Positions 1-64,000 are shown, counted from the first letter of the stretch. The stretch: DNA of 64,000 nucleotides from an uncultured Actinomycetes bacterium (GCA_963726965.1 CAVSEI010000011.1:441915-505914); one strand, 5' to 3'. Program-made: numbers and translations. The notes: generated by a model not told the origin, from the sequence alone.

Positions 1-429
1 GCGGTCGCGCGAGGTGCACACCGTTCGGTCCGAAGCCGCCGCTCGGGCTCCAACCAGGCGGGCGTGACGATGGCCTCGCCGGCTGCGATCTGGGGCAGCC
101 ACTCGGCCTGCAGCCCGGGTGACCCGGCGTTGGCGATCACGCCGCCGCTCATCACCGAGCTCACGAAATGGGGCGACGGCGCCAGCGTCCGACCCAACTC
201 GGTGTAGACGACGACCGCGTCCAGCATCGTCATCCCGCTCCCGCCGTGTTCCTCGGGCAGCGTCATGCCGAGGAGCCCCAACTCGGCGAGTTGCTCCCAG
301 AACTTGGTGGGATACCCGATGGGATCGTCTTCCATCGCGCGCGACGACGTCGAGACCGCAGTACCGCGCGCACACGCCGGCCACCGCCTCGCGCAACATG
401 TCCTGCTCGGGAGTGAAGTCGAGATCCAT
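1..429 (-). pseudogene. acyl-CoA dehydrogenase, N-terminal ~140 codons (rest lies beyond the window edge); two apparent frameshifts as sequenced
   Basis: Reverse translation from ATG 429..427 gives MDLDFTPEQDMLREAVAGVCARYCGLDVV. After a frame change in a (GC)n run near 336-343 it reads RAMEDDPIGYPTKFWEQLAELGLLGMTLPEEHGGSGMTMLDAVVVYTELGRTLAPSPHF, a typical ACAD N-terminal domain. A second frame change lies near 36-41. The start overlaps the upstream stop (TGATG). Confidence 0.75.
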
Positions 430-896
430 CAAGGTCTCCAGTCGTCACCGCGGCGTTGCCACGGGTTGTCGTCGATTGAGTTCGGGACGGCGACCTTCGC
501 CTCCGATTCCGTGCAGATCACGTCGCCGACACGGATGGTGAGGTCCAGCTCGACCCAGCCGCAACCGCGATCGTCGAGCGCCACGTCGCGCACGACACCT
601 TCGATCACCATCGTGTCGGCGGGGAAGATCGGCTTGCGCATCTTGTAGCGCAGCCGCCCGAGCCGCCCCTTCGGTCCGGTCCAGTCGGTGACGAAACGCT
701 CCAGCCACGCGCCCTGGTTCGGCGAGTTGAGGAAGATGTCCTTGACGCCCTGACGCTCGACCGCGAAGTGGTGGTCGTGGTGCATCGGTCGCCAGTCGCG
801 CGACGCGAGCGCACCGAGCACCACGGTGGTCGACGTGACGTCGTACGACAGGGAGGGCAGCACGCCGCCGACCGCCACCTGGTCGAAGGTGATCAC
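429..896 (-). CDS. MaoC-like (R)-specific enoyl-CoA hydratase, hot-dog fold subunit
   Basis: These are the last 155 codons of ORF 429..1208. GTG 896..894 overlaps the upstream stop (GTGA). The sequence ITFDQVAVGG...DWRPMHHDHHFAVERQGVKDIFLNSPNQGAWLERFVTDWTG...VELDLTIRVGD is MaoC dehydratase-like. The upstream ~100 codons of the ORF are Arg/Pro-rich non-gene read-through. Confidence 0.8.
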   Translation of the reverse strand: MITFDQVAVGGVLPSLSYDVTSTTVVLGALASRDWRPMHHDHHFAVERQGVKDIFLNSPNQGAWLERFVTDWTGPKGRLGRLRYKMRKPIFPADTMVIEGVVRDVALDDRGCGWVELDLTIRVGDVICTESEAKVAVPNSIDDNPWQRRGDDWRP

Positions 897-1414
897 GCCG
901 CGTCCCTCCGGTAGCCGAAGCCGGTCCACCGTTCGACACCGCAGAGTTCGTTGCGCTGGTTGCGGTACTCGACGTCGATCACCCAGAAGCGACCGGTACC
1001 GAGTCGACGGGTCTGTTCTTCGCTCACCGAGACGAGGCGTTGCGCGCTGGTGATCGTGTCGCCGGGCCGCACCGGTTCGTGGAAGGTGGTGACGTTCTCG
1101 GTCATGATCGCTTCGGGGAGCTCGAACCGGGCCTTCAGGTCGAAGTGGATCTGCAGCGGGAGCTTCTCGACCGTGCGTCCGGGCGCCCAGTGGTGCGGCC
1201 GGAACCACGCCGAGAGCATCGACAGCGGCGCGATGGGCCCACCGGTGATCTCGTTGGCGACCGCATCGTCCCAGAAGATCGGGTTGGCGTTCTCCACCGA
1301 CGCCGCGCTGGTCCAGAAGTACCCGCGCTCGACGGGGAACTCACCCTCCTCCTCGTACTGCAGCTGTCCGATGAGGGACTGCACGTCGCTCGGCAGACCC
1401 GCCGTCGAACTCAT
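893..1414 (-). CDS. MaoC_dehydrat_N-type hot-dog subunit (partner of the adjacent MaoC subunit; HadA/HadB or ChsH1/ChsH2-like arrangement)
   Basis: These are the last 173 codons of ORF 893..1669. ATG 1414..1412 overlaps the stop of the upstream gene (ATGA). The sequence reads MSSTAGLPSDVQSLIGQLQYEEEGEFPVERGYFWTSAASVENANPIFWDD...GTGRFWVIDVEYRNQ. Confidence 0.8.
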   Translation of the reverse strand: MSSTAGLPSDVQSLIGQLQYEEEGEFPVERGYFWTSAASVENANPIFWDDAVANEITGGPIAPLSMLSAWFRPHHWAPGRTVEKLPLQIHFDLKARFELPEAIMTENVTTFHEPVRPGDTITSAQRLVSVSEEQTRRLGTGRFWVIDVEYRNQRNELCGVERWTGFGYRRDAA

Positions 1415-3829: not shown

Positions 3830-5074
3830 TCAACCAGTGACCACACCGTCGGCGATGAGTGCGTCGACGGTCTCGTCGTCGAGACCCAGCTCCTCGGCCA
3901 GGACCGAACGGGTGTGCTCGCCGACCCAGGGGATGCGCGACTCCGGCCCTTCGGCGACCTTCGACAACTTCACCGGGTTGCCCGGGATCACGACGGGTCG
4001 CTCGACGCCGTCGGTGCGCTCCATCTCGATCAGCATGTGCCGGGCTTCGAGGTGAGGGTCGGCCACGACCTCCCGCGCAGTCTGGACCGGTGCCGAAGCG
4101 ATCCCCGCCGCCGACAGCTTCTCCACCGCCTCCATCTTGGTCATGTTCCCGGCCCAGGCCTCGATGGCGGGTCGGAGCATGTCTTCGAGATGCGCGGCCC
4201 AGCCTTCCCGCGTCGCCAGGCGCGGGTCGTCGACCCACTCGGGCCGGCCGACGAGTTGCGCGATTCGCTCGAGTTGGTGCTCGCGCACGAGCTGCAGCAC
4301 GAACCATCCGTTGGACGCACGGAACGGATCGAGGATCGCGCTCCGCGGCTCGTTCAGCCGGTGCTTTCCGAGCGACTCGAAGTTGGTGACGATGTCGGTC
4401 ATGGCCACCGTGGCGTCATACATCGCGATGTCGACTCGCTGTCCCTCACCGGTTGCATCCCGGTGGCGGAGCGCGGCCAGGATGCCGATGGCGGCGAACA
4501 GGGCCGAGCTGATGTCGCCGAGGGCCCCGACGGGGTTGGGTCGGGGCGTTTCGTCGCCGACGAGGACGTAGTCGTAGATGCCCGACATCGCTTCCGCGAT
4601 CGACGCGTACGCGGGCCAGTCGGCGTACGGCGAACCGCTCGCCCCGAACCCCGACACCGAGGCGTAGATCACGGAAGGATGCACTGCCGCGACCGCTTCG
4701 TAGCCGAGACCCATCCGGTCGAGCGCACCCGATTTGAAGTTCTCGGCGAACACGTCGAACTTCGGCGCCAACGCGAGCACCAGTTCCCGACCCTTGTCGG
4801 CCTTGAGGTTCACGGTGACGCTGCGCTTCGAGAGGTTGTTGCGCAGGAACGTGGCGCCGATGAAGCGGCCTTCGGGGTCGTGCATGCCCGGCTGTGAACC
4901 TCGGCCGGACTCGCCGGCCGGCGCTTCGATCTTGACGACATCGGCACCGAGGCGGGCGAGGAGCTGGGTGGCGTAGGGGAGGGCCTGCATCTGTTCCAGG
5001 GCGAGCACCCGCACGCCATCGAGCGGCTTGCCGTACTTCGCCGCACCTTCGTTCGCCACGTCCCCGAGTCGCAC
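3830..5074 (-). CDS. family III CoA-transferase (CaiB/BaiF)
   Basis: ORF 3830..5215. The likely GTG start is at 5074 (or 5059), downstream of the permease stop at 5106. The sequence reads LDGVRVLALEQMQALPYATQLLARLGADVVKIEAPAGE...GQRVDIAMYDA...VGEHTRSVLAEELGLDDETVDALIADGVVTG. Confidence 0.85.
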   Translation of the reverse strand: MRLGDVANEGAAKYGKPLDGVRVLALEQMQALPYATQLLARLGADVVKIEAPAGESGRGSQPGMHDPEGRFIGATFLRNNLSKRSVTVNLKADKGRELVLALAPKFDVFAENFKSGALDRMGLGYEAVAAVHPSVIYASVSGFGASGSPYADWPAYASIAEAMSGIYDYVLVGDETPRPNPVGALGDISSALFAAIGILAALRHRDATGEGQRVDIAMYDATVAMTDIVTNFESLGKHRLNEPRSAILDPFRASNGWFVLQLVREHQLERIAQLVGRPEWVDDPRLATREGWAAHLEDMLRPAIEAWAGNMTKMEAVEKLSAAGIASAPVQTAREVVADPHLEARHMLIEMERTDGVERPVVIPGNPVKLSKVAEGPESRIPWVGEHTRSVLAEELGLDDETVDALIADGVVTG

Positions 5075-7210: not shown

Positions 7211-8547
7211 TCAGCCTTGGAGCAAGTCGAGCTTCCGTTGGATCACGTTCTTCGGATTGCAGTCGAACGTGCCGGGCTTGCTCGGGAACACGCGAACGTA
7301 CTTCCCGTTCTTCACCTGCATCAGGACGTAGCAGTCGGTGATCTTCTTGGCCGCGAGGTCGGCCGTCGTCCCGTACATCCCGTCGGCGTCGAACTTGTGG
7401 ATGCCGTCCAGCGCGGTGAACAGCGCCTTGCGGGTCAGCCCGTCGTTCCCGGCGGTCTTGACCACCGAAGCCACGGCATCACGCAACAGCAGGCCGACGG
7501 CCCACGCGATCACCGAGTAGCCGTTGGCTTTGTCCTTGCCGACGTACTTCAGGAAGTTGGCCATCATCGGGTTGGACTTGGCCTCCTCGAACGGGAGGAA
7601 TCCGATCTGCACGTACTCGCCGTCGATGTCGGCCCCGCCCTGCGGGATGAAGGTCGGGTCGTAACACGTGGTGTTGCAGTCCCAGACCTTCACGCTGTTG
7701 ACGCCCTGGAGCTTGGCTTCCTTGCGGAGCTTGATCGTGCACCCGGGCGGGTTGCCGCACTGGGCGAGGGTCGAACTGTTCTGCTTGATGGCCTGGACGA
7801 CCGGCGTGTACGCGCTCTGGGGGACCGAACCGCCGAGCGGGAACTCACCGTCGAGCTTGATGCCGACCTGGTTGTCGTAGATGCCACCCTGGCCGACGAA
7901 CTGCGCGTCGCGTGCCGACTTGAGGTCGGCGGAGTCGATGAAGATCCCGTGGAGGCCCTTCCCGAACTTCGTCTTGTAGTAGTTCGCGCGCCCGACGTTC
8001 GCCTGGTAGGTCTGCGGGTGCTGGTCCTTCGTCGAGCAGACGATCGCCGGCGGGTTCACCGCGTACGTCGTCTTCGAGCACTGTTGCGCCACGCTGGTGT
8101 AGAGCGTCGCCAGGTCGGGAAGGCCCGTGGTCGCGCCGGTGGAGTCCTTGCACCCCTCGACGTCGTCGACGTTGGCGAGGAACAGCGCGGCCGCGACGAC
8201 GGCGAAGTCGTCCGAACAGGACGTGATCATCGCGTTCGGGACTCGGAGCCACTGAGCTTGGAGTCGTGGAAGTCGACGACGACCTTGCGCCCCGCGAGCC
8301 CGCCCTGCGCGTTGATGTACTTGGCGAAGCCGTTGAACCCGTCGACGACACCCTGGAACAGACCCGGTGCGAGCGGGGTGTCGACGTCGGCGACCACCGC
8401 GATCTTGAGCTCGGTCGGCGTGACCCCGACGTCGGACGACTTCGTGGGCTTGGCCGCCCGCTCGGTCCCGGCGCTCGCGGTGACCGCGCTGCTCGCCATG
8501 ACGATCGCCACGCCCAGTACGAGCGCAACCCAACGGAACCTCTTCAT
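7211..8547 (-). pseudogene. ABC transporter substrate-binding protein (LivK family), one apparent frameshift
   Basis: The signal peptide and N-terminus lie in ORF 8227..8547 (MKRFRWVALVLGVAIVMASSAVTASAG...KIAVVADVDTPLAPG...GRKVVVDFHDSKL). The remainder is in the 7211.. frame from MITSCSDDFAVVAAALF onward. The frames join near 8230-8240; adding one A would give ...SESRNAMITSCSDDF. Confidence 0.8.
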
Positions 8548-8665: not shown

Positions 8666-10069
8666 ATGCGCGGAATCGTTTCCTGGGCCGCCTACCTGCC
8701 GTACCGAAGGCTTGATCGCACGCAGATCGCCCCGTTCGTCGGTCAGGGTGGGGGGAAGGGCACCCGCACGGTGGCGTCCTTCGACGAGGACTCCACCACG
8801 ATGGGGGTCGAAGCGGCGCGCCTCGCCCTCCGGGACCGCGACGTGACGCCGGCGCAGCTGTTGTTCGCCACCTCCTTCCCCGCGTACGCCGACAAGACCA
8901 ACGCCAGCGCGATCCATGCCGCCCTGCGTCTGCCGGCGAGCGCGCCGGCATTCGACCTGGGTGCATCGGTGCGCTCTGCGGTCGGCGGCCTCCTGCTCGG
9001 ACTGACCGGTACCGTCGACGCCGCCCTCGTGATCGGCGCCGACGTCCGCACCGGGCTGCCCGGGAGCGGTGAGGAGGCAGCCGGTGGTGACGCCGCGGCC
9101 GCATTCGTCGTGGGCGACGAGTCCGCGGGTCCACTCGTGGCCGAGTTCTTGGGATCGGCGAGCGTCACGGACGAATTCGTCGAGCGCTGGCGAGCGCCCG
9201 GAGAACTCCGGACCCGGGTGTGGGACGAGAAGTTCAGCGAGGTCACGTACGTCCCGTTGGGGGTGCAGGCATGGAACGCCGCGCTCGAATCGGCGGGGCT
9301 CACCGCGGGCGATGTCGCGGCCGCGGCGGTTGCGGCCCCTGCGCAGCGCGTGGCGCGCGCGGTCGGCGGCAAGCTCGACGGCGTGCACGTGATCGACGAT
9401 CTTTCGACGGTCGTCGGCAACTGCGCGGCTGCACAACCAGGCCTGTTGTTGGCGGCGTTGCTCGAACAGGCCGAATCCGGTCAGGTGCTGGCTCTCGTGG
9501 TCCTCGCTGACGGTGCTGACGTGTTGTTGTTCCGCGCCACCGATGGGTTGGCCTCGTACCGGCCTGCCCGCACCATCGCCGAGCAAGTCGCGGCCGGCGC
9601 GGCGCTGCCGTACGGCAAGTTCCTGGCGTGGCGCGGCATGTTGCCCGTCGAACCCCCCCGGCGCCCCGAGCCGCAACGCGTGTCGGCGACGGCCGCGGCG
9701 CGCAGCGAGGACTGGAAGTTCGGTTTTGTCGGGTCGAAGGAACGCGACACGGGAGTGGTGCACCTGCCGCCGGCGCGCGTGTCTCGCGATGGCGAGCACA
9801 CCGACGAGATGGAACCGGTCGCGCTCGCCGACGTCCGCGGCACCGTGGTCACGTTCACCATCGATCGCATGGCGTACTCACCCAGCCCACCCGTGGTGTT
9901 CGCGGTCGTGGACTTCGACGGCGGCGGGCGGCTCCCCCTCGAGCTCACCGACGCTGACGCCGACGAGATCGAGATCGGTCAACGGGTGGAGATGACGTTC
10001 CGTCGCCTCTTCACCGCCGACGGGATCGTCAACTACTTCTGGAAAGGGAGGTTGATGCGCGATGGCTAG
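8666..10069 (+). CDS. HMG-CoA-synthase-like (thiolase-fold) protein fused to a C-terminal DUF35/OB-fold domain; catalytic residues apparently substituted
   Basis: ATG 8666 is in frame inside ORF 7217..10069. The motifs VASFDEDSTTMGVEAARLAL, LVIGADVRTGLPGSGEEAAGGDAAAAFVV, DEFVERWRAP and VVGNCAAAQPGLLLAALL follow the HMGCS family pattern. The C-terminal VRGTVVTFTIDRMAYSPSPPVVFAVVDFDGGGRLPLELTD...IGQRVEMTF is a DUF35 OB-fold. The protein has only one Cys in total. Confidence 0.75.
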   Translation: MRGIVSWAAYLPYRRLDRTQIAPFVGQGGGKGTRTVASFDEDSTTMGVEAARLALRDRDVTPAQLLFATSFPAYADKTNASAIHAALRLPASAPAFDLGASVRSAVGGLLLGLTGTVDAALVIGADVRTGLPGSGEEAAGGDAAAAFVVGDESAGPLVAEFLGSASVTDEFVERWRAPGELRTRVWDEKFSEVTYVPLGVQAWNAALESAGLTAGDVAAAAVAAPAQRVARAVGGKLDGVHVIDDLSTVVGNCAAAQPGLLLAALLEQAESGQVLALVVLADGADVLLFRATDGLASYRPARTIAEQVAAGAALPYGKFLAWRGMLPVEPPRRPEPQRVSATAAARSEDWKFGFVGSKERDTGVVHLPPARVSRDGEHTDEMEPVALADVRGTVVTFTIDRMAYSPSPPVVFAVVDFDGGGRLPLELTDADADEIEIGQRVEMTFRRLFTADGIVNYFWKGRLMRDG

Positions 10070-11259
10070 CCACGGCATCAAGGATCGCGTCGCCATCGTC
10101 GGGATGGGGTGCACCAACTTCGTCGAGCACTGGGGCAAAGGGCTCGACGACCTGGTGATCGAAGCAGCCAACGAGGCCTATGCCGCCGCCGGGATGGACA
10201 AGCCTGATGTCGACGCGTACTGGCTCGGTACCGCCAACGGTGGTATGAGCGGCATCACGCTGGCGCGTCCGCTGCAGTTGGTCGACAAGCCCGTCACCCG
10301 GGTCGAGAACTACTGCGCGACGGGCGCGGAGTCGTTGCGGCAGGCCGCGTACGCGGTTGCATCCGGCGCCTACGACACCGCGATGGCGATCGGAGTCGAG
10401 AAGACGAAGGACGGCGGCTTCCAGGGGCTCAACGCGGTGGCCCCACCGAACGACGGGACCGGGCGCACGCTCACCGCCGCCGCGATGTTCTCGATGGTCG
10501 CGCCGGCCTACGCCGCGAAGTACGGCGTCGACCCCGACAAGATGCGTGAGGCGATGGCCCACGTGGCGTGGAAGAACCACTTCAACGGCGCGCGGAATTC
10601 ACGCCGCGCAGTTCCGGCGCGAGGTGTCGATCGAGACCATCTGCAACTCGCCGAAGATGGCAGGCGACCTGCGGGTGTTCGATTGCGCGGGCGTCGCCGA
10701 CGGTTCCGCGGCGGCAATCGTGTGTCGCGCCGAAGATGCGCACAAGTACACCGACACCCCCATCTTCGTGAAGGCGCTGTCGTTCATCGCCGGGAACGGC
10801 AGCGGCGTCACCGACCCGAGCTACGACTACACGAACTTCCCCGAGATCGCGGCGACCGCGCGCGACGCGTACGCCCAAGCGGGGATCACCGATCCACGTC
10901 GGGAGTTCGCACTCGCCGAGGTCCATGACTGCTTCACCATCACCGAGCTCGTGCTCATGGAGGACCTGGGGTTTTCCGAGCGGGGCGCCGTGTGGCGCGA
11001 TGAGCTCGACGGCGTCTACGACCTCGACGGCGAGCTGCCGGTCAACCCGGATGGCGGCTTGAAGTCGTTCGGCCACCCGGTCGGCGCGTCGGGATTGCGC
11101 ATGATGTTCGAGGCCTGGTTGCAGCTGCGGGGTGAAGCGCCGCCCGAGCGTCAGATCGAGGCGGCGAAGCCGGGCGGTGACCGCGGGTTGGCGCTGACCC
11201 ACAACCTCGGCGGCTACCCGGGCGAGATGGTCAGCTTCGTCTCGATCCTGGGGCGGTAG
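10062..11259 (+). pseudogene. SCP-x/Ltp-type thiolase-like protein (nonspecific lipid-transfer-protein thiolase family), one apparent frameshift
   Basis: ORF 10062..10928 (MASHGIKDRVAIVGMGCTNF...VENYCATGAESLRQAAYAVASG...AWKNHFNGARN) continues in ORF 10357..11259 (AAQFRREVSIETICNSPKMAGDLRVFDCAGVADGSAAAIV...NPDGGLKSFGHPVGASGLRMM). The frames join near 10595-10600 (+1 nt). The start overlaps the upstream gene by 8 nt. Confidence 0.8.
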
Positions 11260-15292: not shown

Positions 15293-15810
15293 CCCGCGCG
15301 ACGCATGTCGGCCTCGGCCTCGCCGGGGTGCTGCTCGTCGTGTTGATCGCGTCCGGCGTCTGGTTGTGGTGGGACTACCGGCCCGGACCCGATCAGTGGA
15401 TTCGTGACGCGCACCAGGTTGCGGCAGACGCGCTGGTCGTGGTCGCGGTCGTCCTGGTCGTGGTCGCGATCCTGCAGCGCGCGCGCTCCCGTGTGCCCGG
15501 CGTCGTCGCTGCGTGCGGCGTCCTCGTCACCGTCGCCGGAGCCTGCATCACCGGGCGTCTGTTGCCGTGGGATCAGCTCGCGCTGTCGGCCGTGACCGTC
15601 GACGTCGGTGGCGGCGTGGATGCGGTCCTCACCAACCCGGTGAAGTTCGTGCTCATCGACGGGCGCGAACTCTCCCCGGCGGCGTACGACTTCTGGGCGT
15701 ACTCGCACCTCGCGCTCACGGTCCTCGTCGCGGTTGCGCTGGTGCTGGTCTGGTTCCGCACTCGAGATCTGCGCCCGGTGGACGCCGAGGAGCCGGTCAG
15801 ATCGTCGTGA
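15289..15810 (+). CDS. hypothetical integral membrane protein (about 4 TM segments)
   Basis: This is the distal part of ORF 15037..15810 and has strong GC3 coding bias. Hydrophobic helices include GLGLAGVLLVVLIASGVWLWW, ALVVVAVVLVVVAIL, VVAACGVLVTVAGACITG and LALTVLVAVALVLVWF. The start is uncertain (TTG 15289, or a GTG a few codons later). Confidence 0.45.
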   Translation: MTRATHVGLGLAGVLLVVLIASGVWLWWDYRPGPDQWIRDAHQVAADALVVVAVVLVVVAILQRARSRVPGVVAACGVLVTVAGACITGRLLPWDQLALSAVTVDVGGGVDAVLTNPVKFVLIDGRELSPAAYDFWAYSHLALTVLVAVALVLVWFRTRDLRPVDAEEPVRSS

Positions 15811-16711
15811 GGACGGGCGCGACCTCGGCGCTGAACGCCGCCATCTGGTCGCAGATCTCGTCGCAGCTCCGGGCCTTGAACCGCACCTGGATCTGGTTCA
15901 CGCCGTCAGGCGTCTCGGCGAGGATCTGCTCGGCGATGTCGCCGGGCGCGCCGCTGAGCACACCGTCACCGACGTCCCAACTCGGAGTGCCCACGTAGAG
16001 GAACGGCGTGATGTCCCCGATCATCATCGGCCGGTCGGCGCGGCCGTGCTCCTCGCGGAGTGCCTGCAGCTTGGTGACCATCTCGGCGTTCGACGGTCCC
16101 TGCGGGAGCCAGCCGTCGGCGTACGTCGCGGCGCGGCGGATCGCGGCCGCGCTCGACCCGGCGATCCAGATCGGGGGCCGCGGCGTCTGCACCGGGCGCG
16201 GCCGCGAACCGACGCCGTTGACGAACTCGTGCTCGAGCGCTTCGATGAGGGGCGGAAGCTTCTCCTCGACGATCTTGCCGCGGCGCGCGTGATCGATCCC
16301 GAGCGCGGCGAACTCCGCCTCGACGTGACCGGCGCCGATGCCGACGATCGCTCGACCACCTGAGAGGTAGTCGAGGGTCTCGAACTCCTTCGCCGCGATC
16401 AACGGATGGCGGTACGGCAGCACGTACGCGTGGGAGAGCAGGTTGGTACGTTCGGTGAGCCCTGCGAGCCACGACAACGTGCTGATGCAGTCCTGCCAGT
16501 ACGTGCCCATCGCGCCGGCCATCGACTCGGGGATCGCGATGTGGTCGCACACCGCGACGTAGAAGAAGCCGTGCTCGTCGGCGGTCTGCGCGACGCGCGC
16601 CAAATCGGCCGGGCCGGCAGTGAGTTCCCAGTCGGCGACGAACGTCTTGCTCTTCGACTGGATGGGAAGTTGGATGCCGAATACGCGGGTCCCCGCGGAA
16701 ATCTCGATCAT
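15797..16711 (-). CDS. LLM-class (luciferase-like) F420-dependent oxidoreductase family protein
   Basis: ATG 16711 lies within ORF 15797..17275. The sequence reads MIEISAGTRVFGIQLPIQ...FFYVAVCDHIAIPE...LSGGRAIVGIGAGHVEAEFAALGIDHARRGKIVEE...IWIAGSSAAAIRRAATYADGWLPQG. Confidence 0.8.
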   Translation of the reverse strand: MIEISAGTRVFGIQLPIQSKSKTFVADWELTAGPADLARVAQTADEHGFFYVAVCDHIAIPESMAGAMGTYWQDCISTLSWLAGLTERTNLLSHAYVLPYRHPLIAAKEFETLDYLSGGRAIVGIGAGHVEAEFAALGIDHARRGKIVEEKLPPLIEALEHEFVNGVGSRPRPVQTPRPPIWIAGSSAAAIRRAATYADGWLPQGPSNAEMVTKLQALREEHGRADRPMMIGDITPFLYVGTPSWDVGDGVLSGAPGDIAEQILAETPDGVNQIQVRFKARSCDEICDQMAAFSAEVAPVLTTI

Positions 16712-16744
16712 GGCGAGAACGTAGCCGCGGTAGGTTGCGCGGTT

Positions 16745-18843: not shown

Positions 18844-18860
18844 ACCAATCACCAATCTCT

Positions 18861-47501: not shown

Positions 47502-48975
47502 ATGGCCGACTGGCAGGACCACGAGTGGAAGCTTCTGATCGGGGGCGAGTTCGTCGCCGGGGACGCGGGGACCGCGCCGATCGTGAATCCCGCCACCGAG
47601 GAGGTCGTCGGCGAGGCGCCGGAGGCGTCGGTGGCCCAGGCGGTGGAAGCGGCGCGGGCGGCGCAGGAGGCGTTCCCGGCGTGGTCGGCGACGCCGGCTG
47701 ACGAACGCGCAGCATTGCTGCTGAAGGCGGCGAACCGGCTCGGTGAGCTCGGTGCCGACCTCGTGCCGCTGATCATCTCGGAAACCGGGGCCACCGCGAC
47801 CGTCGGTTCGCGCATGCAGGTGCCGGTCGCGCTCGAGCGTTTCCATCGCTACGCGCGCGTGACGCGACGAAGAGCATCGGGATCCCGATGCCGCCCCAGC
47901 CGGTGTCGGCCACACCGCTCGCGCCGGGTGGGCTGATGGGCGCGTACGTCAACCGTCAGCCGGTCGGCGCGGTGGCGTGCATCTCGCCGTACAACTTCCC
48001 GCTCACGAACATGGTGGGCAAGATCGCCCCGCGCTCGCGGTCGGGTGCACCGTGGTGATGAAGCCGGCACCGCAGGACCCCCTCGCGATTCTCGTGCTCG
48101 CCGAGGTCATGCGCGAGGTCGGGTTCCCGCCGGGTGTCGTGAACGTGGTCAGCTCGGCGGCGCCCGATCCCGCCGCCGCGCTCACCGAGAGCCGCGACAT
48201 CGACATGGTGTCGTTCACCGGCTCGACCGCGGTCGGTTCGCGCATCTATCAAGCCGGTGGCGCGACGATGAAACGCATGTTGCTCGAGCTCGGCGGCAAG
48301 GGTGCAGCGCTGGTGCTCGACGATGCTGATCTCGGCGCCGCGGTCACCGCTATCAGCAGCGTGTGGACATTCCACAGCGGCCAGATCTGTACCGCGCCGA
48401 CCCGTGCCATCGTGCACCGCAGCAAGTACGACGAACTGGTCGAGCGCCTTGCCGGTTTCGCCGGCAACGTGAAGGTCGGTGATCCGCTCGACGACGACAC
48501 CATCGTCGGGCCGGTCATCTCGGCCGCACAGCGCGAGCGCATCGAGGGGTACGTCGCCGCCGGCGGTGACGAGGGTGCCGAGATCGTCGTCGACGGCCGT
48601 CGCCCTGCTCACATGGAGCGCGGCTACTACGTCGCGCCGACGCTGCTCGCCGGTTGCAAGCCCGAGATGACGTCGGTGCGTGAAGAGATCTTCGGCCCGG
48701 TGGTCGCGGTGCTGCCGTTCGACGACGACGACGAAGCGGTCGCCATCGCCAACAGCACCGACTTCGGCCTGTACGACTACGTGATGACGAGTGACACCGA
48801 GCGGGGGTTCCGCCTGGCCGGCAAGTTGCGGTCGGGCAACGTCGGCATCAACACCGCGCAGCGCAACATGGAGACGCCCTTCGGTGGGTTCAAGATGAGC
48901 GGCGTCGGTCGCGACGGTGGCGACTTCGGTCTCTACGCCTACACCGAGATGCAGTCGGTGGTGTGGCCCGCATGA
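47502..48975 (+). pseudogene. NAD(P)-dependent aldehyde dehydrogenase, two apparent frameshifts
   Basis: The gene runs through three frames. ORF 47502..47936 gives MADWQDHEWKLLIGGEFVAGD...ALERFHRYAR. A middle frame gives DATKSIGIPMPPQP...VGAVACISPYNFPLTNMVGKIAP. ORF 47977..48975 gives ALAVGCTVVMKPAPQDP...FTGSTAVGSRI...ELGGKGAALVLDDAD...SGQICTAPTRAIV...EEIFGPVVAVLPFDDDDEAVAIANSTDFGL. The frames join near 47853-47860 in a (GC)n run and near 48027-48030 in a C-run. Confidence 0.85.
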
Positions 48976-50309: not shown

Positions 50310-51093
50310 GTGGGAAGGCTCAGCGGCAAGGTGGCCGTCGTCACCGGTGCCGCCCGTGGTCAGGGCGAAGCCGAGGCGCGCATCTTCGTGCGCGAAGGCG
50401 CCAAAGTCGTCCTCACCGACATCCTCGACGACGAGGGCAAGCAGGTGGCCGACGACCTCGGTGCCGACGCACGGTTCGTCCACCACGACGTCAGCCGCGA
50501 GGCGGACTGGGCCGATGTGATGGTTGCGGCCGCGGACTTCGGACCGCTCGCGGTGCTCGTCAACAACGCCGCGGTCCTGTTCTCCAAGCCCATCGTCGAC
50601 ACGACGCTCGATGACTACATGCCGCGTGATCACGACCAACCAGGTCGGGACGTTCCTCGGGATCAAGGCCGCGATCGCCCCGATGATCGCGGCGGGCGGA
50701 GGTTCGATCATCAACGTGTCGTCGATCGACGGCCTCGGTTCCAAGAACAGCCTGATCGCGTACACGGCCTCGAAGTTCGCCATCCGGGGCATGACCAAGA
50801 CCGCGGCCATCGAACTGGGGGTGCACGGCATCCGGGTGAACTCACTCCACCCCGGCGGGGTGAACACCTTCATGACGAACCCCACCGAGGAAGCCGACGA
50901 CGTCGTCGACACCTGGTTCCACAACATCGCCCTCGGCCGGGTCGGACGGCCCGACGAGTTGGCCAACGTGGCCCTCTTCCTCGCGTCGGACGAGAGCTCG
51001 TACTGCACCGGGGCGGAGTTCGTCGTCGACGGGGGTTGGACCTGCGGCGACCTCACCCCTCAGCTCCCCGGCGCTCCTGATTTCACCGCCTGA
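50310..51093 (+). pseudogene. SDR resembling 3-alpha(or 20-beta)-hydroxysteroid dehydrogenase (FabG3-like), one apparent frameshift
   Basis: GTG 50310 follows GGGGAG and gives VGRLSGKVAVVTGAARGQGEAEARIFVREGAKVVLTDILDDEGKQVADDLGADARFVHHDVS...LVNNAAVLFSKPIVDTTLDDYM. The gene continues in ORF 50524..51093 as RVITTNQVGTFLGIKAAIAPM...SIINVSSIDGLGSKNSLIAYTASKFAIRGMTKTAAIELG. The frames join near 50620-50624. The N-terminal block closely parallels mycobacterial FabG3 as I recall it. Confidence 0.8.
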
Positions 51094-54135: not shown

Positions 54136-55231
54136 CTACGCGGGGACGGGATCGGGGAGCGCGGCGAGCTGGTCGAGATCGAAGCCGAAGACCTTGGCCG
54201 CGTTGCCCGCCACGATGGCGTGCAGATCGGCTTCGCTGACGCCGTCGAACTGGTCCGCGCACACCGCTTGCGAGTTCGGCCACGTCCCTTCGGGATGGGG
54301 GTAGTCGTTCCCCCACATCAGGGTCTCGACCCCGGTCGTGGCGCGGTTGTTGATCGCGACCGGGTCGTACATGAACGTGGCGTGCACCCTGGCGGCGGAT
54401 CAGCTCGCTCGGCAGCATCGACAGCTTCGGCTTCGCCCACATGTGGTGGTCCTCGTAGATCGCGTCGGCCTGGGTCATGATCCACGCGAGCCACGATGCG
54501 CCCGTCTCCACGGTGACGACCTTCAACTCGGGGAAGCGGTCGAGCGCGCCACCGGCGGCGAGACCGAGGAGCACCATGGGCCCATCGAGCTGTGAACCCA
54601 TGAGGTAGTTGATGACCGCGCCGCCGGGGCCGCGTACGACCCGCGGTTCGTGGCCGGTGCCGGAATGGAACGTCAGCGGGAGGCCGAGGTCCTGCGCGGT
54701 GGCCCAGAACGGGTCGTAGGCCCCGTCGTTGTAGCCCCGCGACGGCACCTGGGCCGGGAGGAACAGCGCACGGAAGCCCTGGTCGGCGACGACCTTGGCG
54801 TCCTCGACCGCGCCTTCGACGTCGAGCATGGACACCATGCCGACGGGCAGGAGGCGATGGTCGTCGAACACGTCGGCGGCCCAACTGTTGTACGCCCGGC
54901 AGAGCTGACGTTGGAACTCGGCGTCGTCGCTGGCGAAGCAGGCCTGCAACGCGAAGGTCGGGAAGATCACTTCCGCGCTCACGCCGTCGCGTCGTTGGTC
55001 GCGGAGGCGATCGTCGGCGTCGAAATCGCCGACCACCGCGACCTCGCGCTCCGAGACCGGCATCAACTTGCGCGGGCCGAGACCTTCGATGAGCAGCGTG
55101 CGCCATTCACCGATGGTCTCGATACGCGGGACCCGCCCGCGGAACGCGGCGTCGATCCGGTCTTCGTACAACTCGATCGGCTCGGTGACGTGAGAATCGG
55201 TCGAGATGAAGATCGCGTCGCGGTAGGTCAT
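54136..55231 (-). pseudogene. amidohydrolase_2 family protein, one apparent frameshift
   Basis: ATG 55231 in ORF 53639..55306 gives MTYRDAIFISTDSHVTEPIELYEDRI...DGVSAEVIFPT...LTFHSGTGHEP...PSELIRRQ. The gene continues in ORF 54136..54387 as VHATFMYDPVAINNRATTGVETLMWGNDYPHPEGTWPNS. The frames join near 54387-54391. Confidence 0.8.
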
Positions 55232-55250: not shown

Positions 55251-56408
55251 TCAGGGGGACAGGACCAGACCGCTGCGGCCCGCCGACACGAGGACGTGCT
55301 CGGCATCCTGGACCTGGTTGGCGGCGCTGCCTCGCACCTGACGTACTCCTTCGAGAATGTTGTTCATCCCGTGGATGTAGGCCTCGCCGAGCAGTCCACC
55401 GTTCGGGTTCACCGGGATCTTCCCCCCGACCTCGATGTTGCCGCCGGCGATGAAATCGGTGGCCTCGCCGGGTCCGCAGAAGCCGAACGCCTCCAACTGC
55501 AGGAACACGGTCGGGGTGAAGTTCTCGTAGATCATGGCCACGTCGATGTCGGCGGGCGAGAGTCCGGTCGCCTCGTACATCTGGCGGCCCAGCGCGGCGG
55601 CTTCCGGGAAGGTGGCGCGGTCGCCGACGTAGTAGTCGAACATCTCGTCACCGTCTCGCAGGTGGGCCTGCGTCGCCGCCGCCACCCGCACCGGTCGGTG
55701 TGGAAGGTCACGAGCCCGCGCGCCGCTCGTGATCACCATGGCGACGCCACCGTCGCTCTCCTGGCAGCAGTCGAGCTTGCGGAGGATCGGCTCGACGATC
55801 CAGCGCGACTGCTGGTGCTCCTCCAGCGTGAGCGGCTGCTGGTAGTAGAACGCCGCGGGATTGGTCGCCGCATGTTTGCGAGCGACCACCGGATAGAGGC
55901 CGAAGTCGACGTTGGTGATGCCGTATGTGTGCATGTACCGCTGGTACCAGAGCGAGTACACCTTCGCCGGGGTGTCGAGACCGAAGGGCAGGTACCAGTT
56001 CCAGCCCGGCGGCGTGACGCGCGCCTGATTGTTCTCCGCGATCGGCTGACCGAAGCGCCGTCCGGATCGCTCGTTGAAGGCGCGGTACACCACGACGGCA
56101 TCGGCCGCGCCCGACGCGACCGCGGCCGATGCGAGTTGCACGGTCGCGCACGCGCCGCCGCCCCCACCGCGCGTGCGCGCGGTGAATCGCAATTCGGGGA
56201 TACCCGCGCACCGGATGACCGAGAGCTCGTCGTTCACGTCCATGGCGAAGGTCACGGCGCCGTCGATGTCGGCGGGGGTGAGCCCGGCGTCGGTCACCGC
56301 CGCGGCGATCGCTTCGCCGGCCAGCTGCAGTTCGCTGCGTCCCGAGTGCTTGGAGAACTCGGTCTGGCCGATGCCGACGATCGCGGTGTCGCTCTGCAAC
56401 GCGCTCAT
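55251..56408 (-). CDS. SCP-x/Ltp-type thiolase-like protein
   Basis: ATG 56408 in ORF 55251..57329 overlaps the DUF35 stop (ATGA). The sequence reads MSALQSDTAIVGIGQTEFSKHSG...GGGGGACATVQLASAAVASG...NPNGGLLGEAYIHGMNNILEGVRQVRG. Confidence 0.85.
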   Translation of the reverse strand: MSALQSDTAIVGIGQTEFSKHSGRSELQLAGEAIAAAVTDAGLTPADIDGAVTFAMDVNDELSVIRCAGIPELRFTARTRGGGGGACATVQLASAAVASGAADAVVVYRAFNERSGRRFGQPIAENNQARVTPPGWNWYLPFGLDTPAKVYSLWYQRYMHTYGITNVDFGLYPVVARKHAATNPAAFYYQQPLTLEEHQQSRWIVEPILRKLDCCQESDGGVAMVITSGARARDLPHRPVRVAAATQAHLRDGDEMFDYYVGDRATFPEAAALGRQMYEATGLSPADIDVAMIYENFTPTVFLQLEAFGFCGPGEATDFIAGGNIEVGGKIPVNPNGGLLGEAYIHGMNNILEGVRQVRGSAANQVQDAEHVLVSAGRSGLVLSP

Positions 56409-56816
56409 GCGTTCCCGCTCTCGCCGCCGGCAACGCGGAACTGCGGGAGCAGGACACCGTCGACGTCCTCGATGCTGAGCGCGACTTCCATCCCGTTCTC
56501 GACGTCGTCCGGGCCGACTCCGACCAGGTTCGACACGAACCTGATGCCGTGGTCGAGCTCGACCAAGATGACGACCCGCGGTTCCGCGTCGGGCTTGGTC
56601 GGATGGTGCGAGACGATCCACGTGTACACGGAACCGTGGCCGCTCGACTCCTGCGTGTCCCACTCGACGGAATGGCACTCGCCACACATCGGTGCGGGCG
56701 GATGGCGCACTGCGCCGCACTCGGCGCAGCGTTGGAAGACCAGTCGGTGCTCGGCGATCGCATCCCAGAAGAACTGGTCGTCGACGCGTCGGCGAGGGAG
56801 GGATCACCGAGGGCAT
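56405..56816 (-). pseudogene. DUF35 protein (zinc-ribbon plus OB-fold), one apparent frameshift near the 5' end
   Basis: ATG 56816 gives MPSVIPPSPTR. After a frame change near 56781-56790 it reads DDQFFWDAIAEHRLVFQRCAECGAVRHPPAPMCGECHSVEWDTQESSGHGSVYTWIVSHH...VVILVELDHGIRFVSNLVG. ORF 56405..56710 covers only the distal part, and starting there would remove the first CxxC of the ribbon. Confidence 0.75.
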
Positions 56817-56817: not shown

Positions 56818-59227
56818 TCACGCCGCCAGTCGAGGATGGCGCCCGAGGCGGCGAGCTTGTCGATGCGCTCGGCGTCGTATCCCAGCTCCTCGAGGATCGC
56901 GCGGGTGTCCTGGCCCGGCACGAGCGGCGGACCCTGCACGACGCCCGGCGTCTCCGACAGGTCGAACAGCAACCCCATCACGTCCATGTCGCCCACGATC
57001 GGATGGCGATACTTGGTGACCCAACCCTTCTCGATCATCTCGGGGTCGTCGAACAGATCCAGGACGAAGTCGGGTGTCGACACTTCGCACGGTACGCCGA
57101 CCGCGTCGAGTGCGCGCGAACCACTGGGCTGCGGTTCGGGTGCGGAACGCCGGTTCGAGCGCGTCGAACGCGGTGTCGGTGGTGATCGCGCCGACACCGA
57201 GCGTCGCCGCGAGCGTGGAGCGGTGCTCATCGGTGACCGCGGCGACGCAGAGCCAGCCGTCGGCCGTCTCGTAGAGGCGGTAGCGCGCGTGCCAGCCGAG
57301 TTGCATCGCGTCGAGCTGCGGGCGGTCACCGTGCTGGCTGCCGTCGGCCGCGCTCCAGGCGATCGACGCGTTCAGCAATTGCGCGTACATGATCGACGTG
57401 TCGACGAACTGGCCCTCGCCGGTGCGCGCTCGGTGGTACAGCGCCTGCACGATCGCGATCGCCGAGAGGAACCCGTTCCCGGTGTCGCCGAGCGAGACGA
57501 CCGGCCAGAACGGGATGCCGTCGTGGTCGAGACCACCATCGAGCCAGTCGGGCCCCGCCAGTGCCGCGCCGGTCTGGTCGTTCCCGGGCAGACCCTCGCG
57601 ATCGCCGTGCTCGAAGCCACGGGTGTGGCAGTAGATGATGTCGGGCTTGATCGCGCGGATGCTCTCGTAGTCGACGCCGAGGCGGACTGCCGCGTCGTAG
57701 CGCATGTTGTGCTGCACGACGTCCGCAGACTCGACCATCTCGCGCAGGACAACCATCGCGTCGGGGTCCTTGAGGTTCATCGCGATGCTGCGCTTGCCTC
57801 GATTGCAGCACATCGCGATGTGCGTACTCATCCAATAGAAGTCGTGCAGCGGGTTGACCTTGATCACGTCGGCCCCGAGGTCGGCGAGCATCATCGTCCC
57901 CCACGGGCCGGCGACCGCGAGCCCCAGGTCGATCACGCGAACCCCGGCGAGGGGTGACGGCGGCGCCGGCGAATCCGACGCCGTCGGCGACTCGGACGCG
58001 GACGATGGCATCGGCTTCTGCTCGCACCGTGTCGGTGTCGGCGCCGACTGCCCGAGGTGGCGACGGTGCATCCGTCGGACAGTTGTGCAGTTCGTAGACG
58101 CGCCCGACCTGGCGCACCGGGCCGAGGTGTGGGTCGGTCACCTCGGTGACGCAACCGTCGGCGAGGAACGCGGGATCGTGGAGCGCTTCCTCCGGTGAGC
58201 GCAGCGGTTGCAGCGGCACGCCCACCTCGGCGCCGAGCGCGATCCATGGCTCCGACGGGAACTTGGCGACGGCCGCCGCCATCAACGGTTGGTAGTGGTG
58301 GAGCAGCAGCATCTCGTTGACGTCCATCCCGATGCGGGTGGTCGCGTCGCACGGTCGCGTGGTCTTCTCGGTGCGCTGTACCCGATCGCCCTCGGCGGCG
58401 CTGATGATGAAGTCGGGGAGGGGCACCCACTGGTGGATCCACCGACCGTCGGCGCAGCGGAACACGCCCTTGGGCGCGCGCGGGTCGCTGATCCAGCTCT
58501 GGAAGTTGTCGGTCTCGACGTGTTCGACGCGCTGCCAGGCGGAGAGGGTCGTCGCGAGTACGCCCTGGAACAGGGAGGTCGACACCCGCTGCCCACGACC
58601 CGTCTGCTCCCGCACGCGCAACGCGGCGCTGATCGCCAGGGTGGCGAGGTAGCACGACGCCACGCTGATCCACGGCACGCCGGAGAACAGCGGTCCGGGG
58701 CGGGGCGCCGCCACCCAACAGTCGTCGGGGACGACGAGATCGGGGAATGCCGGGGGCACTCCACCGAGTCGCGCCAGCGTGCCACCGGGGACGCCGCGGC
58801 TCTCCCACTGGTGGCCGGTGCGGGCGGCGACCAGCGCGTCGTATCCCGGCCGGTCGGCGTGACGGCCGTCGTCCCCGTACCCGGTGATGGAGCAGTAGAT
58901 GAGGCGTGGATTGATCGTGTGCAGCGTCTCGAAGTCGATCCCGAGGCGAGCGGTCGTTCCCGGTGCGAAGCTCTCGATCAGGACGTCGGCGCGTGACGCG
59001 AGCGCGACGAAGCGGGCGCGCTCCACGTCGTCGTGCAGGTCGAGGACCGCGCTGCGCTTTCCTCGGTGCCACACCTGCGCGCCGCTGAAGCCCCGAGTCG
59101 GGTCGCCACCCGGTGGCTCGACCTTGGTGACCCCGGCACCGTGGTCGCCGAGCAGCATGCCGGTCATCGGACCCGCGATCCCCGTCGTCAGGTCCAGGAC
59201 CTCGACCCCGTCCAGCACCCCTGTCAT
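56818..59227 (-). pseudogene. tandem two-domain family III CoA-transferase (CaiB-CaiB, about 800 aa), 2-3 apparent frameshifts
   Basis: Domain 1 is in ORF 57326..59227 (MTGVLDGVEVLDLTTGIAGPMTGMLLGDHGAGVTKVEPPGGD...GYGDDGRHADRPGYDALVAARTG...VGADTDTVRAEADAIVRVRVADGV). Domain 2 is in ORF 56818..58071 (LAGVRVIDLGLAVAGPWGTMMLADLGADVIKVNP...). Its C-terminus is in the 55251..57329 frame (RALDAVGVPCEVSTPDFVLDLFDDPEMIEKGWVTKYRHPIVGDMDVMGLLFDLSETPGVV...ILEELGYDAERIDKLAASGAIL). Domain 1 has no stop codon in any plausible frame. Removing one C/G near 57951-57954 joins the two domains in frame. Other frame changes lie near 57112-57118 and probably 56822-56835. Confidence 0.65.
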
Positions 59228-60181: not shown

Positions 60182-60908
60182 GTGGACGTCACCGGCATCA
60201 TCTTCGCGTCGGTCGACTGCGACGCCGACGCGGTCGAAGCGTGGAACCGTTGGTACGACCTCGAGCACCTGCCGCCGAACATCGCGTTGCCGGGGATCAT
60301 GACCGGCAAGCGCTATGTCGCGCCCCCCGAGCTCCACGATGTACGTGAGCCGGCCGATCGGCTCGAGGGTTTCGCCGACGGCCGCGGTGTCCACGTGACC
60401 GTCTACACCCTCGGCGGTGATCCCGCGCAGGTGCTCGCCGACATGACGACGTACCGCGACAAGCTCGAAGACGCCGGCCGCATGTTCGCGCCCGAGAAGA
60501 AGATCGTCCGCGCGGGTGGACGCGATGACGTGGAGTTGGGGCGTCGCCGATCCGGTGTTGAAGGCCGATCCGGAAGACATTCCGCACATCCAGCACACCG
60601 CGATCCGGGTCGTGTTGCGACGCGGAGGTGACGACGACGCACGCCACGATGTCGCTCCCGCGGCCGTGATGGTCGACGGTGTGCACACGGTCCTCGGTCA
60701 TCATTCCATCACCGACGACTCGCTCGACTGCGACGTCTACCTGCTCGAGGGCGATCCCGTCGCGGTCACACGCGCGGCCCGGGTCGCGGCACCGTACGGT
60801 CCGGGCACCGACGTGGTGTTGGACGCGCCGTTCCGGTTGATCGTCCCGTTCGACTACAGCTTCGCCGACGCCATCCGGGGCAGCTCGTTGCCGCAGACCA
60901 TCTCCTGA
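60182..60908 (+). pseudogene. hypothetical protein (N-terminal EthD/DUF4286-like alpha+beta-barrel motif), one apparent frameshift
   Basis: GTG 60182 in ORF 60071..60631 gives VDVTGIIFASVDCDADAVEAWNRWYDLEHLPPNIALPGIMTGKRYV...KIVRAG. The gene continues in ORF 60516..60908 as DAMTWSWGVADPVLKADPEDIPHIQHTAIRVVL...VYLLEGDPVAV. The frames join near 60512-60520. The function is unclear. Confidence 0.5.
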
Positions 60909-62188: not shown

Positions 62189-62983
62189 GCCCGCGGACGA
62201 TCGCGATCACCGGCGCGGGTTCCGGCATGGGGGCGGCCCTCGCCGCGCGACTCACCGCGGCCGGCGATCGCGTCATCGGTGTCGACCTGAAGAACGCCGA
62301 GGTCCAGGCCGACCTCGGTACGGCCGACGGGCGCGCCGATGCGATCGCCCGGGTCGGTGAGCTGTCCGGCGGCACGCTCGACGGGCTGGTCACCCTCGCC
62401 GGGCTGGCGGGGCTGCCCGGAGCGGCCTGCGTCGTTGCTGATCTCGGTCAACTACTTCGGCACGGTGGAGCTGCTCGCCGGGCTGCGTCCGTTGCTGGCA
62501 CGGGGCACGGATCCGGCCGCAGTCGCGATCAGTTCGAACTCCACGACGTGCCAACCCGGACTCGACGAGGCCCTGATCGAGAGCTGCCTCGCGGGCGACG
62601 AAGCGGCGACGCGGGCGCTCGCGGGTGACGGCGAGTCCTTGAGCACCTACCCGGTGACCAAGACCGCACTGTCGTGGTGGGTGCGGCGGCACGCACCAAC
62701 GGCCGAGTGGGCCGGTGCAGGGATCACCCTCAACGCGGTGGCGCCCGGCGCGATCCAGACCCCGCTCCTCCAGGAGGGGCTCGATCACCCGACGGTCGGG
62801 CCGTTGATCGACGCGTTCAAATCGCCGCTCGGTCGCAACGGCCGGCCGGAGGAGATCGCCGCGCTCATCGCGTACCTGCTCGGTCCGGACGCGCGGTTCT
62901 TCTGCGGTTCGGTGGTGTTCTGCGACGGTGGCATGGACGCGCAGTTCCGGAGTGACGACTGGCCGAAACCATGGAGGCCCTGA
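62185..62983 (+). pseudogene. SDR resembling 3-alpha-hydroxysteroid dehydrogenase/carbonyl reductase, one apparent frameshift
   Basis: GTG 62185 overlaps the ACAD stop (GTGA) and gives VSPRTIAITGAGSGMGAALAARLTAAGDRVIGVDLKNAEVQADLGTADGRADAIARV...LDGLVTLAGLAGL. The gene continues in ORF 62339..62983 as LLISVNYFGTVELL...AAVAISSNS...YPVTKTALSWWVRR...ITLNAVAPGAIQTPLLQEGL...GRNGRPEEIAALIAYLLGPDARFFCGSVVFCDGGMDA. The frames join near 62415-62420. The block order and motifs parallel the Comamonas 3-alpha-HSD/CR sequence as I recall it. Confidence 0.8.
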
Positions 62984-63651
62984 TGGACACACTCGACGAG
63001 CTCCGAGCGATCGAGCGGATCAAGCAGCTCAAGGCCCGGTACTTCCGGTGTATGGACACGAAGGACTGGGACGGTTTCCAGGCCGTGTTCGCCGCGGACG
63101 CGACGCTCGACACGACCGAGGAGGCGCCCGAGGTCGAGGTGGTGCACGGCGCCCCGAACATCCGCCAGTTCGTGGAGGGCATGGTCGGGCCGGTGGTCAC
63201 GGTGCACCACGGGCACATGCCCGAGATCGAGATCACGTCGCCGACCACGGCACGCGGGATCTGGGCCATGCAGGACTTCCTGCAGATCCCCGAGGGTTCG
63301 CCGCTCGGCATGAAGAGCATGACCGGCTGGGGTCATTACACCGAGACCTACGAGCTGGTGGACGGGACCTGGTTGATCAAGACGCTCGTCCTCACCCGCC
63401 TCCGCCGCGACGTCGAGACTGGCGTGGACGTACCGGCGGACGACGCTACGCTCCGGCCGCCGCAACCGCGCGACGCCCGCGCCGGGGCGAGTTCACGATC
63501 CACCGCTCGGTCGTCGCCGACGACCTCTCGTTGGCGTACGTGCGCGAAGGTCTCGGCGGCCACCCCCTGGTGCTGCTGCACGGGTACCCGGAGACCAAGC
63601 GCATCTGGTGGCGGAACATCGCGCCGCTCGCCGCCGCCGGATTCGAGGTGA
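62983..63651 (+). CDS. NTF2/SnoaL-like protein; only about the first 145 codons look NTF2-like, and the ORF has no stop before it runs into the next gene
   Basis: ATG 62983 overlaps the SDR stop (TGATG); an alternative ATG is at 62971. The sequence reads MDTLDELRAIERIKQLKARYFRCMDTKDWDGFQAVFAADATLD...VVTVHHGHMPEIEITSPTTARGIWAMQDFLQ...WGHYTETYELVDGTWLIKTLVLTRLRRDVE. The remaining codons up to stop 63651 are out-of-frame hydrolase sequence. Confidence 0.6.
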   Translation: MDTLDELRAIERIKQLKARYFRCMDTKDWDGFQAVFAADATLDTTEEAPEVEVVHGAPNIRQFVEGMVGPVVTVHHGHMPEIEITSPTTARGIWAMQDFLQIPEGSPLGMKSMTGWGHYTETYELVDGTWLIKTLVLTRLRRDVETGVDVPADDATLRPPQPRDARAGASSRSTARSSPTTSRWRTCAKVSAATPWCCCTGTRRPSASGGGTSRRSPPPDSR

Positions 63652-64000
63652 TCGTTCCCGACCTGCGCGGCTACGGCGACAGTGATCTGTCGGCCGACGA
63701 TGTCTACGACCTGGCGGTCTACTCGCGCGACGTCCATGCGCTCGTGCACGACGTGCTCGGTCACGAGACGCTGCGCGATCGCGGGCGGTGACGTCGGCGG
63801 TGTCGTCGCCGTCGACCTGGTGCACCGTTTCCCTGGCTTCGTCGAGCGGCTCTGCTTCTTCAACACCGTGCCACCGGCCGCGCTCGACGAGTACGCCGCG
63901 GCCGGACTCGACTACGGCTCGCTCAGCGCGCTGAACGACGGTCCCACCGGTGACTACCGCGAACTGCAGGGCGCACGCCCCGACGAGCTGGCCGCGATGC
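63424..64000 (+). pseudogene. alpha/beta-hydrolase (epoxide-hydrolase/haloacid-dehalogenase-like HGYP type), 5' part; two apparent frameshifts; continues past the window end
   Basis: The frame of ORF 62928..63791 gives EFTIHRSVVADDLSLAYVREGLGGHPLVLLHGYPETKRIWWRNIAPLAAAGFEVIVPDLRGYGDSD...VHDVLGHE. After a frame change near 63766-63770 it reads RCAIAGGDVGGVVAVDLVHRFPGFVERLCFFNTVPP... to position 64000. No start codon exists in the first frame. The only candidate start is GTG 63424 in the NTF2 frame, which needs a frame change at a G-run near 63483-63488. Confidence 0.65.

Follow-up and report, generated by a model that had tools for sequence, protein, structure and literature searches.

Pseudogenes accumulate in reductive genome evolution, of which Mycobacterium leprae is an example, and true decay leaves frameshifts together with nonsense codons, deletions, mobile elements, raised substitution rates and, as in bacterial pseudogenes generally, an indel spectrum biased toward deletion. 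Frameshift-causing residual insertions and deletions (indels) are also well described in assemblies made from Nanopore reads only, especially below ~40-fold coverage, and the IDEEL truncated-gene test has been described for indels of this kind (PMC9262707). The Microflora Danica (MFD) long-read catalogue was produced from Nanopore reads only, using Flye and one round of Medaka (PMC12313526). Here, we analyzed a 64,000-nucleotide stretch of DNA, hereafter called the window, from an uncultured Actinomycetes bacterium (GCA_963726965.1, CAVSEI010000011.1:441915-505914). By Viterbi segmentation, Pfam scans and frameshift-aware alignment we identified 36 reading-frame breaks in 23 of its 61 genes, close to the about 35 breaks in about 22 of about 62 genes that an earlier note had read from the sequence alone. 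The breaks exist in the sequence. Judged by comparison with related assemblies, they are very probably residual consensus errors of a long-read-only assembly, a platform that for the window itself we infer.

The window has a G+C content of 68%, and a raw listing returned 314 open reading frames (ORFs) of at least 80 aa. Such lists are useless because the genome is so G+C-rich, and three independent methods were therefore used. In a codon-usage Viterbi segmentation over six frames and a non-coding state, with stop codons forbidden inside coding states, frame switches inside apparent genes were observed at 336/337, 21732, 23343, 26877, 30354, 31602, 47271, 47859, 48030, 57111 and 63483. A Pfam scan of every frame segment, covering both sides of each junction, showed that the two sides match complementary, collinear parts of one Pfam profile. 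Intact proteins from syntenic loci of other assemblies were also aligned to the window with a frameshift-aware protein-to-DNA dynamic program. This type of alignment, which the earlier note had proposed, placed the breaks and gave 0 breaks in ten intact-looking genes (five chosen controls and five more). It replaced a four-way nucleotide alignment with phase tracking, which was fine for conserved genes, because the latter over-called breaks in the divergent amidase gene and missed sites. Where the reference was complete, the alignment spanned essentially the entire orthologue, while the two edge genes of the window and the fused CaiB-CaiB gene were aligned as far as window or reference reached.

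The origin of the breaks was assessed from related assemblies. Orthologues in independent assemblies (designated L001-L013) read through the break sites in one frame, and by this comparison the breaks of the window are private to its assembly. Relatives were found on contigs of between 430 kb and 2.9 Mb that bear Flye-style 'contig_N' names. Four related contigs named in this way come from ENA (ERZ25039533, ERZ25039488, and ERZ25039502), and one is titled as a Microflora Danica metagenome-assembled genome (MAG; 'isolate MFD05942.bin.2.12 ... contig_10582'). The FadD3 protein of the window has its 100% self match on a 550,445-bp contig in NCBI and ENA, with the same source pattern as these relatives. 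Five related long contigs bear private frameshifts in different genes of the syntenic cluster, and at least four genes that the window keeps intact are privately broken in L008. Compared through one set of short-read reference proteins, with the AMP-ligase left unaligned for the window, the break rate per kb was 0.51 in the window, 0.38 in L001, 0.37 in L002, 1.30 in L003, and 3.54 in L005. When L001, L002, L003, and L005 were pooled, 37 of 50 events were single-base insertions (+1), and G/C runs were found near 9 of 50 sites against a background of 4.3% (p = 3e-4), with no homopolymer enrichment at the break sites of these four contigs. In short-read-style assemblies (two JGI contigs, a GenBank third-party MAG, MEGAHIT-named contigs, and two further JGI contigs) genes were full length throughout, including a single ORF in L012 and L013 for the gene broken at 60521 in the window, and 0 frameshifts were found in 23.3 kb (12.0 kb in L006 and 11.3 kb in L004) at 75-95% amino-acid identity.

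Within the window, breaks occur at 0.58 per kb, or at 0.46 per kb when the AMP-ligase gene (34534-36122, minus strand) is excluded, and intact genes make up 60% of the coding length, in keeping with the earlier estimates of a rate near 0.5 per kb and of intact genes summing to more than half. The earlier note had also described the breaks as randomly spread apart from one gene. This was borne out, since the 28 breaks outside the AMP-ligase gene hit 22 genes where 21.9 are expected from random placement by gene length, and the AMP-ligase is a clear exception (P = 1e-6). Single extra bases account for 24 of the 36 breaks and single missing bases (-1) for eight, so that gains exceed losses 3:1; the remainder includes gains or losses of two bases. 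The breaks are listed below by coordinates and strand, with the alignment positions and the evidence at each site.

336-343, minus strand: acyl-CoA dehydrogenase at the 5' edge, +1, placed at 339 by alignment to the L008 orthologue (CGCGCGCGAC in the window, CGCGCG-GAC in L008); the Acyl-CoA_dh_N profile begins at position 31 in segment 3-338.
8230-8238, minus strand: solute-binding protein, -1, aligned at 8234; Peripla_BP_6 2-50 and 174-342 are in different frames, with one base fewer than in L008 and L009.
10600-10610, plus strand: thiolase, +1, aligned at 10608 (L008 orthologue, 93% identity); Thiolase_N and Thiolase_C_1 are in different frames.
20832-20838, plus strand: amidase, -1, with tblastn frames changing from 3 to 2 at 20834 and the alignment placing the loss at 20836; nucleotide alignment.
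21725-21736, plus strand: amidase, -1, at CGCGCGCGC, with tblastn frames 2 to 1 at 21727-21730 and the loss aligned at 21729.
23340-23352, plus strand: PhyH, +1, tblastn frames 3 to 1, aligned at 23346; one base more in the window than in four relatives.
26870-26880, minus strand: cNMP-binding protein, a frame break placed by profile (cNMP_binding 2-30 against 41-87) and Viterbi switch (26877).
28962-28969, plus strand: short-chain dehydrogenase/reductase (SDR) of 251 aa, +1, adh_short 3-69 against 74-188, aligned at 28967; nucleotide alignment.
30344-30356, plus strand: TLP1-type thiolase-like gene, -2, tblastn frames 1 to 2, aligned at 30346; a two-base gap relative to four relatives.
31606-31612, plus strand: first aldehyde dehydrogenase, +1 in a GGGG run, aligned at 31612 (JGI orthologue, 94% identity); nucleotide alignment.
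31994-32000, plus strand: first aldehyde dehydrogenase, +1, aligned at 32000 (TTCGCGTTCGCG in the window, TTCGCG-TCGCG in relatives).
32524-32531, plus strand: alpha/beta hydrolase, near the N-terminus, +1, aligned at 32530; an extra C relative to three relatives.
34660-35670, minus strand: AMP-ligase, eight breaks at ~34666, 34754, 34992, 35272, 35328, 35590, 35628, and 35657-35666.
38795-38812, plus strand: SDR of 299 aa, -1 or +2, adh_short 1-128 against 129-181, aligned at 38802.
42030-42037, plus strand: cyclase, near the C-terminus, +1, aligned at 42035; nucleotide alignment.
42244-42250, plus strand: luciferase-like oxidoreductase (42126-43003), -1, tblastn frames 3 to 2 at 42239-42242, aligned at 42250.
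47254-47264, minus strand: Amidohydro_3 (D-aminoacylase-like) gene, +1, with orthologue residues 1-27 and 28-573 in different frames (GTCGCGCGAT in the window, GTCG-GCGAT in relatives).
47853-47860, plus strand: second aldehyde dehydrogenase, +2, Aldedh 1-102 against 119-149; two bases more than in L006 and L007.
48026-48031, plus strand: second aldehyde dehydrogenase, -1, Aldedh 119-149 against 150-461, aligned at 48030.
50620-50627, plus strand: SDR of 261 aa, +1, adh_short 1-100 against 103-193, aligned at 50625.
54376-54384, minus strand: Amidohydro_2 gene (364 aa), +1, Amidohydro_2 17-199 against 233-289, aligned at 54379.
56780-56790, minus strand: DUF35/ChsH2-type gene, ~10 codons in, probable +1, aligned at 56783, with one base more than in L006 and L007 and a support of only ~10 N-terminal residues.
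57108-57118, minus strand: fused CaiB-CaiB gene, +1, CoA_transf_3 1-271 and 315-366 in different frames (GTGCGCGCGAA in the window at 57111, GTGCG-GCGAA in relatives).
57995-58029, minus strand: fused CaiB-CaiB gene, between the two CaiB domains, +1, tblastn frame change at 58004-58029, aligned at ~58000; one protein of 802-810 aa in relatives.
60514-60522, plus strand: unnamed gene of ~241 aa, +1, aligned at 60521; the JGI contigs L012 and L013 have one 243-codon ORF at 88-89% identity.
62414-62420, plus strand: SDR of 268 aa, +1, tblastn frames 1 to 2, aligned at 62419; an extra G relative to L010.
63468-63488, plus strand: terminal hydrolase, two breaks near the start, +1 and +1, aligned at 63472 (CCGCGCGAC in the window, CCGC-CGAC in L010) and 63488 (GCCGGGGCG in the window, GCC-GGGTG in L010).
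63766-63772, plus strand: terminal hydrolase, +1, tblastn frames 3 to 1 at 63767-63769, aligned at 63771.

Nearly all junctions named in the earlier note have a break at or a few bases from their coordinates; the upstream break of the CaiB-CaiB gene proved to lie at ~58000 and not at 57951-57954. The list of affected genes needed minor correction. Broken thiolase-like genes number two (at ~10608 and ~30346) where three had been named, those at 17698-18861, 18864-20090, and 55257-56408 being intact by alignment. The LLM gene with a break is the luciferase-like gene at 42126-43003, and no break was found by Viterbi or Pfam in the LLM gene at 15800-16783. In addition, we identified breaks in the hydrolase at ~32530, in the 241-aa gene at ~60521, and in the terminal hydrolase at 63472 and 63488. 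Two of the listed breaks combine into a false fusion. The region 41201-43003 forms one 601-aa ORF with Cyclase and luciferase-like domains, while relatives have separate cyclase and luciferase-like genes of 307 aa and 293 aa; the extra base at ~42035 abolishes the cyclase stop codon, and the base lost at ~42250 restores the same frame.

Three candidates were rejected or left uncounted. The MaoC (441-911) and FAS1_DH_region (911-1417) segments were considered as a frameshift pair and found to be two genes, each matching its own L008 ORF. The DUF35-type protein at 8720-10066 was considered as a fusion; it keeps one conserved frame in L008 (88% identity over 474 residues), and the shift that appears in its first 10 residues is weak and unconvincing. 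A second break in the edge acyl-CoA dehydrogenase near position 44 was left out of the tally because its support amounts to 11 residues.

The earlier note had located the breaks at (GC)n and short homopolymer runs, of which only the former association was recovered. Of 34 sites, 10 have an alternating G/C run of at least 6 nt no more than 3 nt away, where the background is 3.2% (p = 8e-8), whereas homopolymers of at least 4 nt are not enriched at the sites of the window (4 of 34 against 6.6%, p = 0.18). At 339, 47256, 57111, and 63472 the (GC)n run is made by the inserted base, which turns CGGCG in the reference into CGCGCG in the window; the association is therefore partly a product of the error and does not wholly reflect a prior repeat. 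Similar extra C or G bases (CGGCG-type to CGCGCG) were observed in L003 at 6816 and 7542 and in L005 at 14742. In the amidase, the window (20832-20838) and L003 (~4178-4226) are each one base short at an identical position (G-TGAGCTC in the window and G-CGAGCTC in L003, where L001 and L002 have GTCGA(G/A)CT). This common site suggests a context-specific systematic error, possibly tied to a modified motif. A DNA modification shared by the lineage at a G/C-rich motif, misleading Nanopore base-calling systematically while the genes remain intact, could underlie both the recurrent CGGCG to CGCGCG insertions and the amidase position shared with L003; we regard it as unlikely, though not far-fetched.

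The tie between breaks and alternating G/C runs, significant in the window and in its relatives, would also be expected if slipped-strand (phase-variable) or programmed frameshifting took place at (GC)n tracts and the breaks were functional switches or recoding sites. The tracts are, however, only 6-9 nt long (3-4 units), the changes in dinucleotide runs are mostly ±1 and not ±2 in nucleotide alignments, several tracts owe their existence to the inserted base, and the sites fall anywhere within ordinary enzyme genes. There is no conserved recoding signal, since other assemblies carry orthologues that stay in one frame across these sites, and for this reason, and because most changes are not of whole repeat units, we rejected frameshifting of either type as extremely unlikely. 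A recent mass pseudogenisation, in which real mutations would have inactivated about one-third of the genes in a catabolic island freed from selection, is likewise very unlikely. It would agree with the presence of the breaks in the deposited sequence, with the location of all affected genes in one accessory catabolic region, and with one gene having eight breaks, as in a possible old pseudogene. Against this, and as the earlier note had claimed, no stop codons occur inside any frame segment of the window, and the frame segments and orthologue alignments revealed no nonsense codon, truncation, or insertion element. Nor is amino-acid divergence raised: orthologue identity stays the same from one side of a break to the other (94/95/95% in the aldehyde dehydrogenase), and the broken genes have diverged no further than their intact counterparts in relatives (0.73 against 0.69-0.73 for TLP1, and 0.83 against 0.78-0.86 for PhyH). 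The threefold excess of insertions is opposite to the bias of bacterial pseudogenes, and the genes hit are as expected if breaks fall at random according to gene length. With five related long contigs broken at different sites and the short-read-style assemblies clean, pseudogenisation would need independent, simultaneous decay in long-read genomes alone. The preference of the earlier note for consensus error over mass pseudogenisation is thus supported by the private breaks in relatives, by the clean short-read-style sequence, and by the excess of insertions.

A mixed case was considered for the AMP-ligase gene, where eight breaks fall within ~1 kb against 0.73 expected (Poisson P = 1e-6) the pieces of the AMP-binding profile lie in different frames, and two orthologues place the breaks at the same eight sites, while the remaining 28 breaks are consistent with one even rate. 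Most breaks would then be consensus errors, and the AMP-ligase would be a real pseudogene or a chimeric consensus of collapsed strains or paralogues. We consider this quite unlikely. The corrected protein is 84% identical to both orthologues (the intact L002 copy is 86-87% identical to the L004 orthologue), and the gene has no stop codons in its frame segments. Comparable bursts in single genes were also found in related long-read contigs, with seven breaks in TLP1 of L003 and 11, eight, and five breaks in the aldehyde dehydrogenase, AMP-ligase, and acyl-CoA dehydrogenase of L005, respectively, which makes local bursts a feature of such assemblies. The likeliest source of the AMP-ligase burst would be a consensus of poor local quality, caused by a drop in depth or by mixed strains.

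Residual consensus error thus remains the preferred explanation. The genes would be functional in the organism, and the 36 breaks would have arisen during long-read-only assembly, most likely from Nanopore reads with Flye and one round of Medaka as for the Microflora Danica catalogue. The errors would mostly consist of one extra base, less often of a lost base or of two bases gained or lost, and would be near-random at ~0.5 per kb, with G/C-alternating contexts and local bursts of poor consensus as departures. Several points weigh against this explanation. The sequencing platform of the window contig was deduced from its source pattern, and the platforms of the comparison assemblies were taken from contig naming and source, save for the MFD-named MAGs. 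At each break, support for an error comes from comparison among assemblies and not from reads, and for the breaks at 339, 8234, and 10608 the reference was L008, which is itself error-prone. All genes of the window are catabolic or accessory and none is housekeeping. In addition, published accounts of Nanopore-only indel errors stress homopolymers (PMC9262707), whereas in the window (GC)n runs are enriched and homopolymers of at least 4 nt are not.

Breaks of this kind can also hide behind a normal gene length. The amidase gene call of the relative L002 (3765-5183), at 472 aa, looks full length, while tblastn with the intact L001 orthologue divided it into four pieces in alternating frames.

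Pfam scans of the frame segments showed that the window codes for ~61 genes of a steroid/HIP-type catabolic cluster, including a FadD3-type CoA ligase, many acyl-CoA dehydrogenases, and thiolases with DUF35 partners, as well as CaiB-type CoA transferases, SDRs, aldehyde dehydrogenases, amidohydrolases, TetR regulators, and an ABC uptake system. Homologues of the FadD3 protein are named 'FadD3 family acyl-CoA ligase' and 'HIP-CoA ligase' in their sources, and its closest named relatives are Acidimicrobiia MAGs. The best explanation of this content is that the window is part of a long contig of a metagenome-assembled Acidimicrobiia-type actinobacterium and holds an ordinary steroid/HIP-type cluster.

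Some further features of the gene content were observed. A small gene with a cNMP-binding domain (26659-27169, minus strand) sits between the second acyl-CoA dehydrogenase and FadD3; it was not found at that position in any syntenic relative examined, where FadD3 directly follows the corresponding acyl-CoA dehydrogenase (ACAD_b). Two coding-looking segments are without a Pfam match. One, of 372 aa (33388-34524, plus strand), had no orthologue in the set of named reference proteins taken from the relatives, and the other, of 96 aa (43021-43308, minus strand), is directly downstream of a solute-binding-protein gene. A protein of ~449-480 aa (8614/8720-10066, plus strand) has a DUF35/ChsH2 OB-fold at its C-terminus and an N-terminal part of ~360 aa without a Pfam match, and thereby far exceeds the usual DUF35 size, which is ~130-145 aa elsewhere in the window.

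Left uncorrected, the breaks would cause about one-third of the window genes to be called as fragments, as fusions such as the 601-aa ORF, or as pseudogenes, and gene loss or island decay deduced from this assembly would be wrong. Polishing or frameshift-aware gene calling is needed before this contig and its sister contigs are put to functional or evolutionary use.

Relatives annotated as carrying actinobacterial steroid ring C/D (HIP) degradation clusters have the same genes in the same arrangement as the window, and this order is kept in at least 10 assemblies; the window shows no feature that is unusual for these clusters, and the artefact overlies this content. With decay of the Mycobacterium leprae type the window shares many frameshifted genes in a contiguous region, and differs in having no nonsense codons, deletion bias, mobile elements, or raised divergence. 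Relative to published Nanopore errors, those of the window are biased toward extra bases and G/C-alternating contexts and include bursts in single genes, and residual long-read errors in this high-GC lineage would thus be unlike textbook homopolymer deletions. The likeness to the indel errors of Nanopore-only genomes and metagenomes (PMC9262707; PMC12313526) is otherwise close, in that single-base indels break conserved genes without signs of decay, are private to each assembly, vary in rate from contig to contig, and are lacking in short-read assemblies of the lineage.

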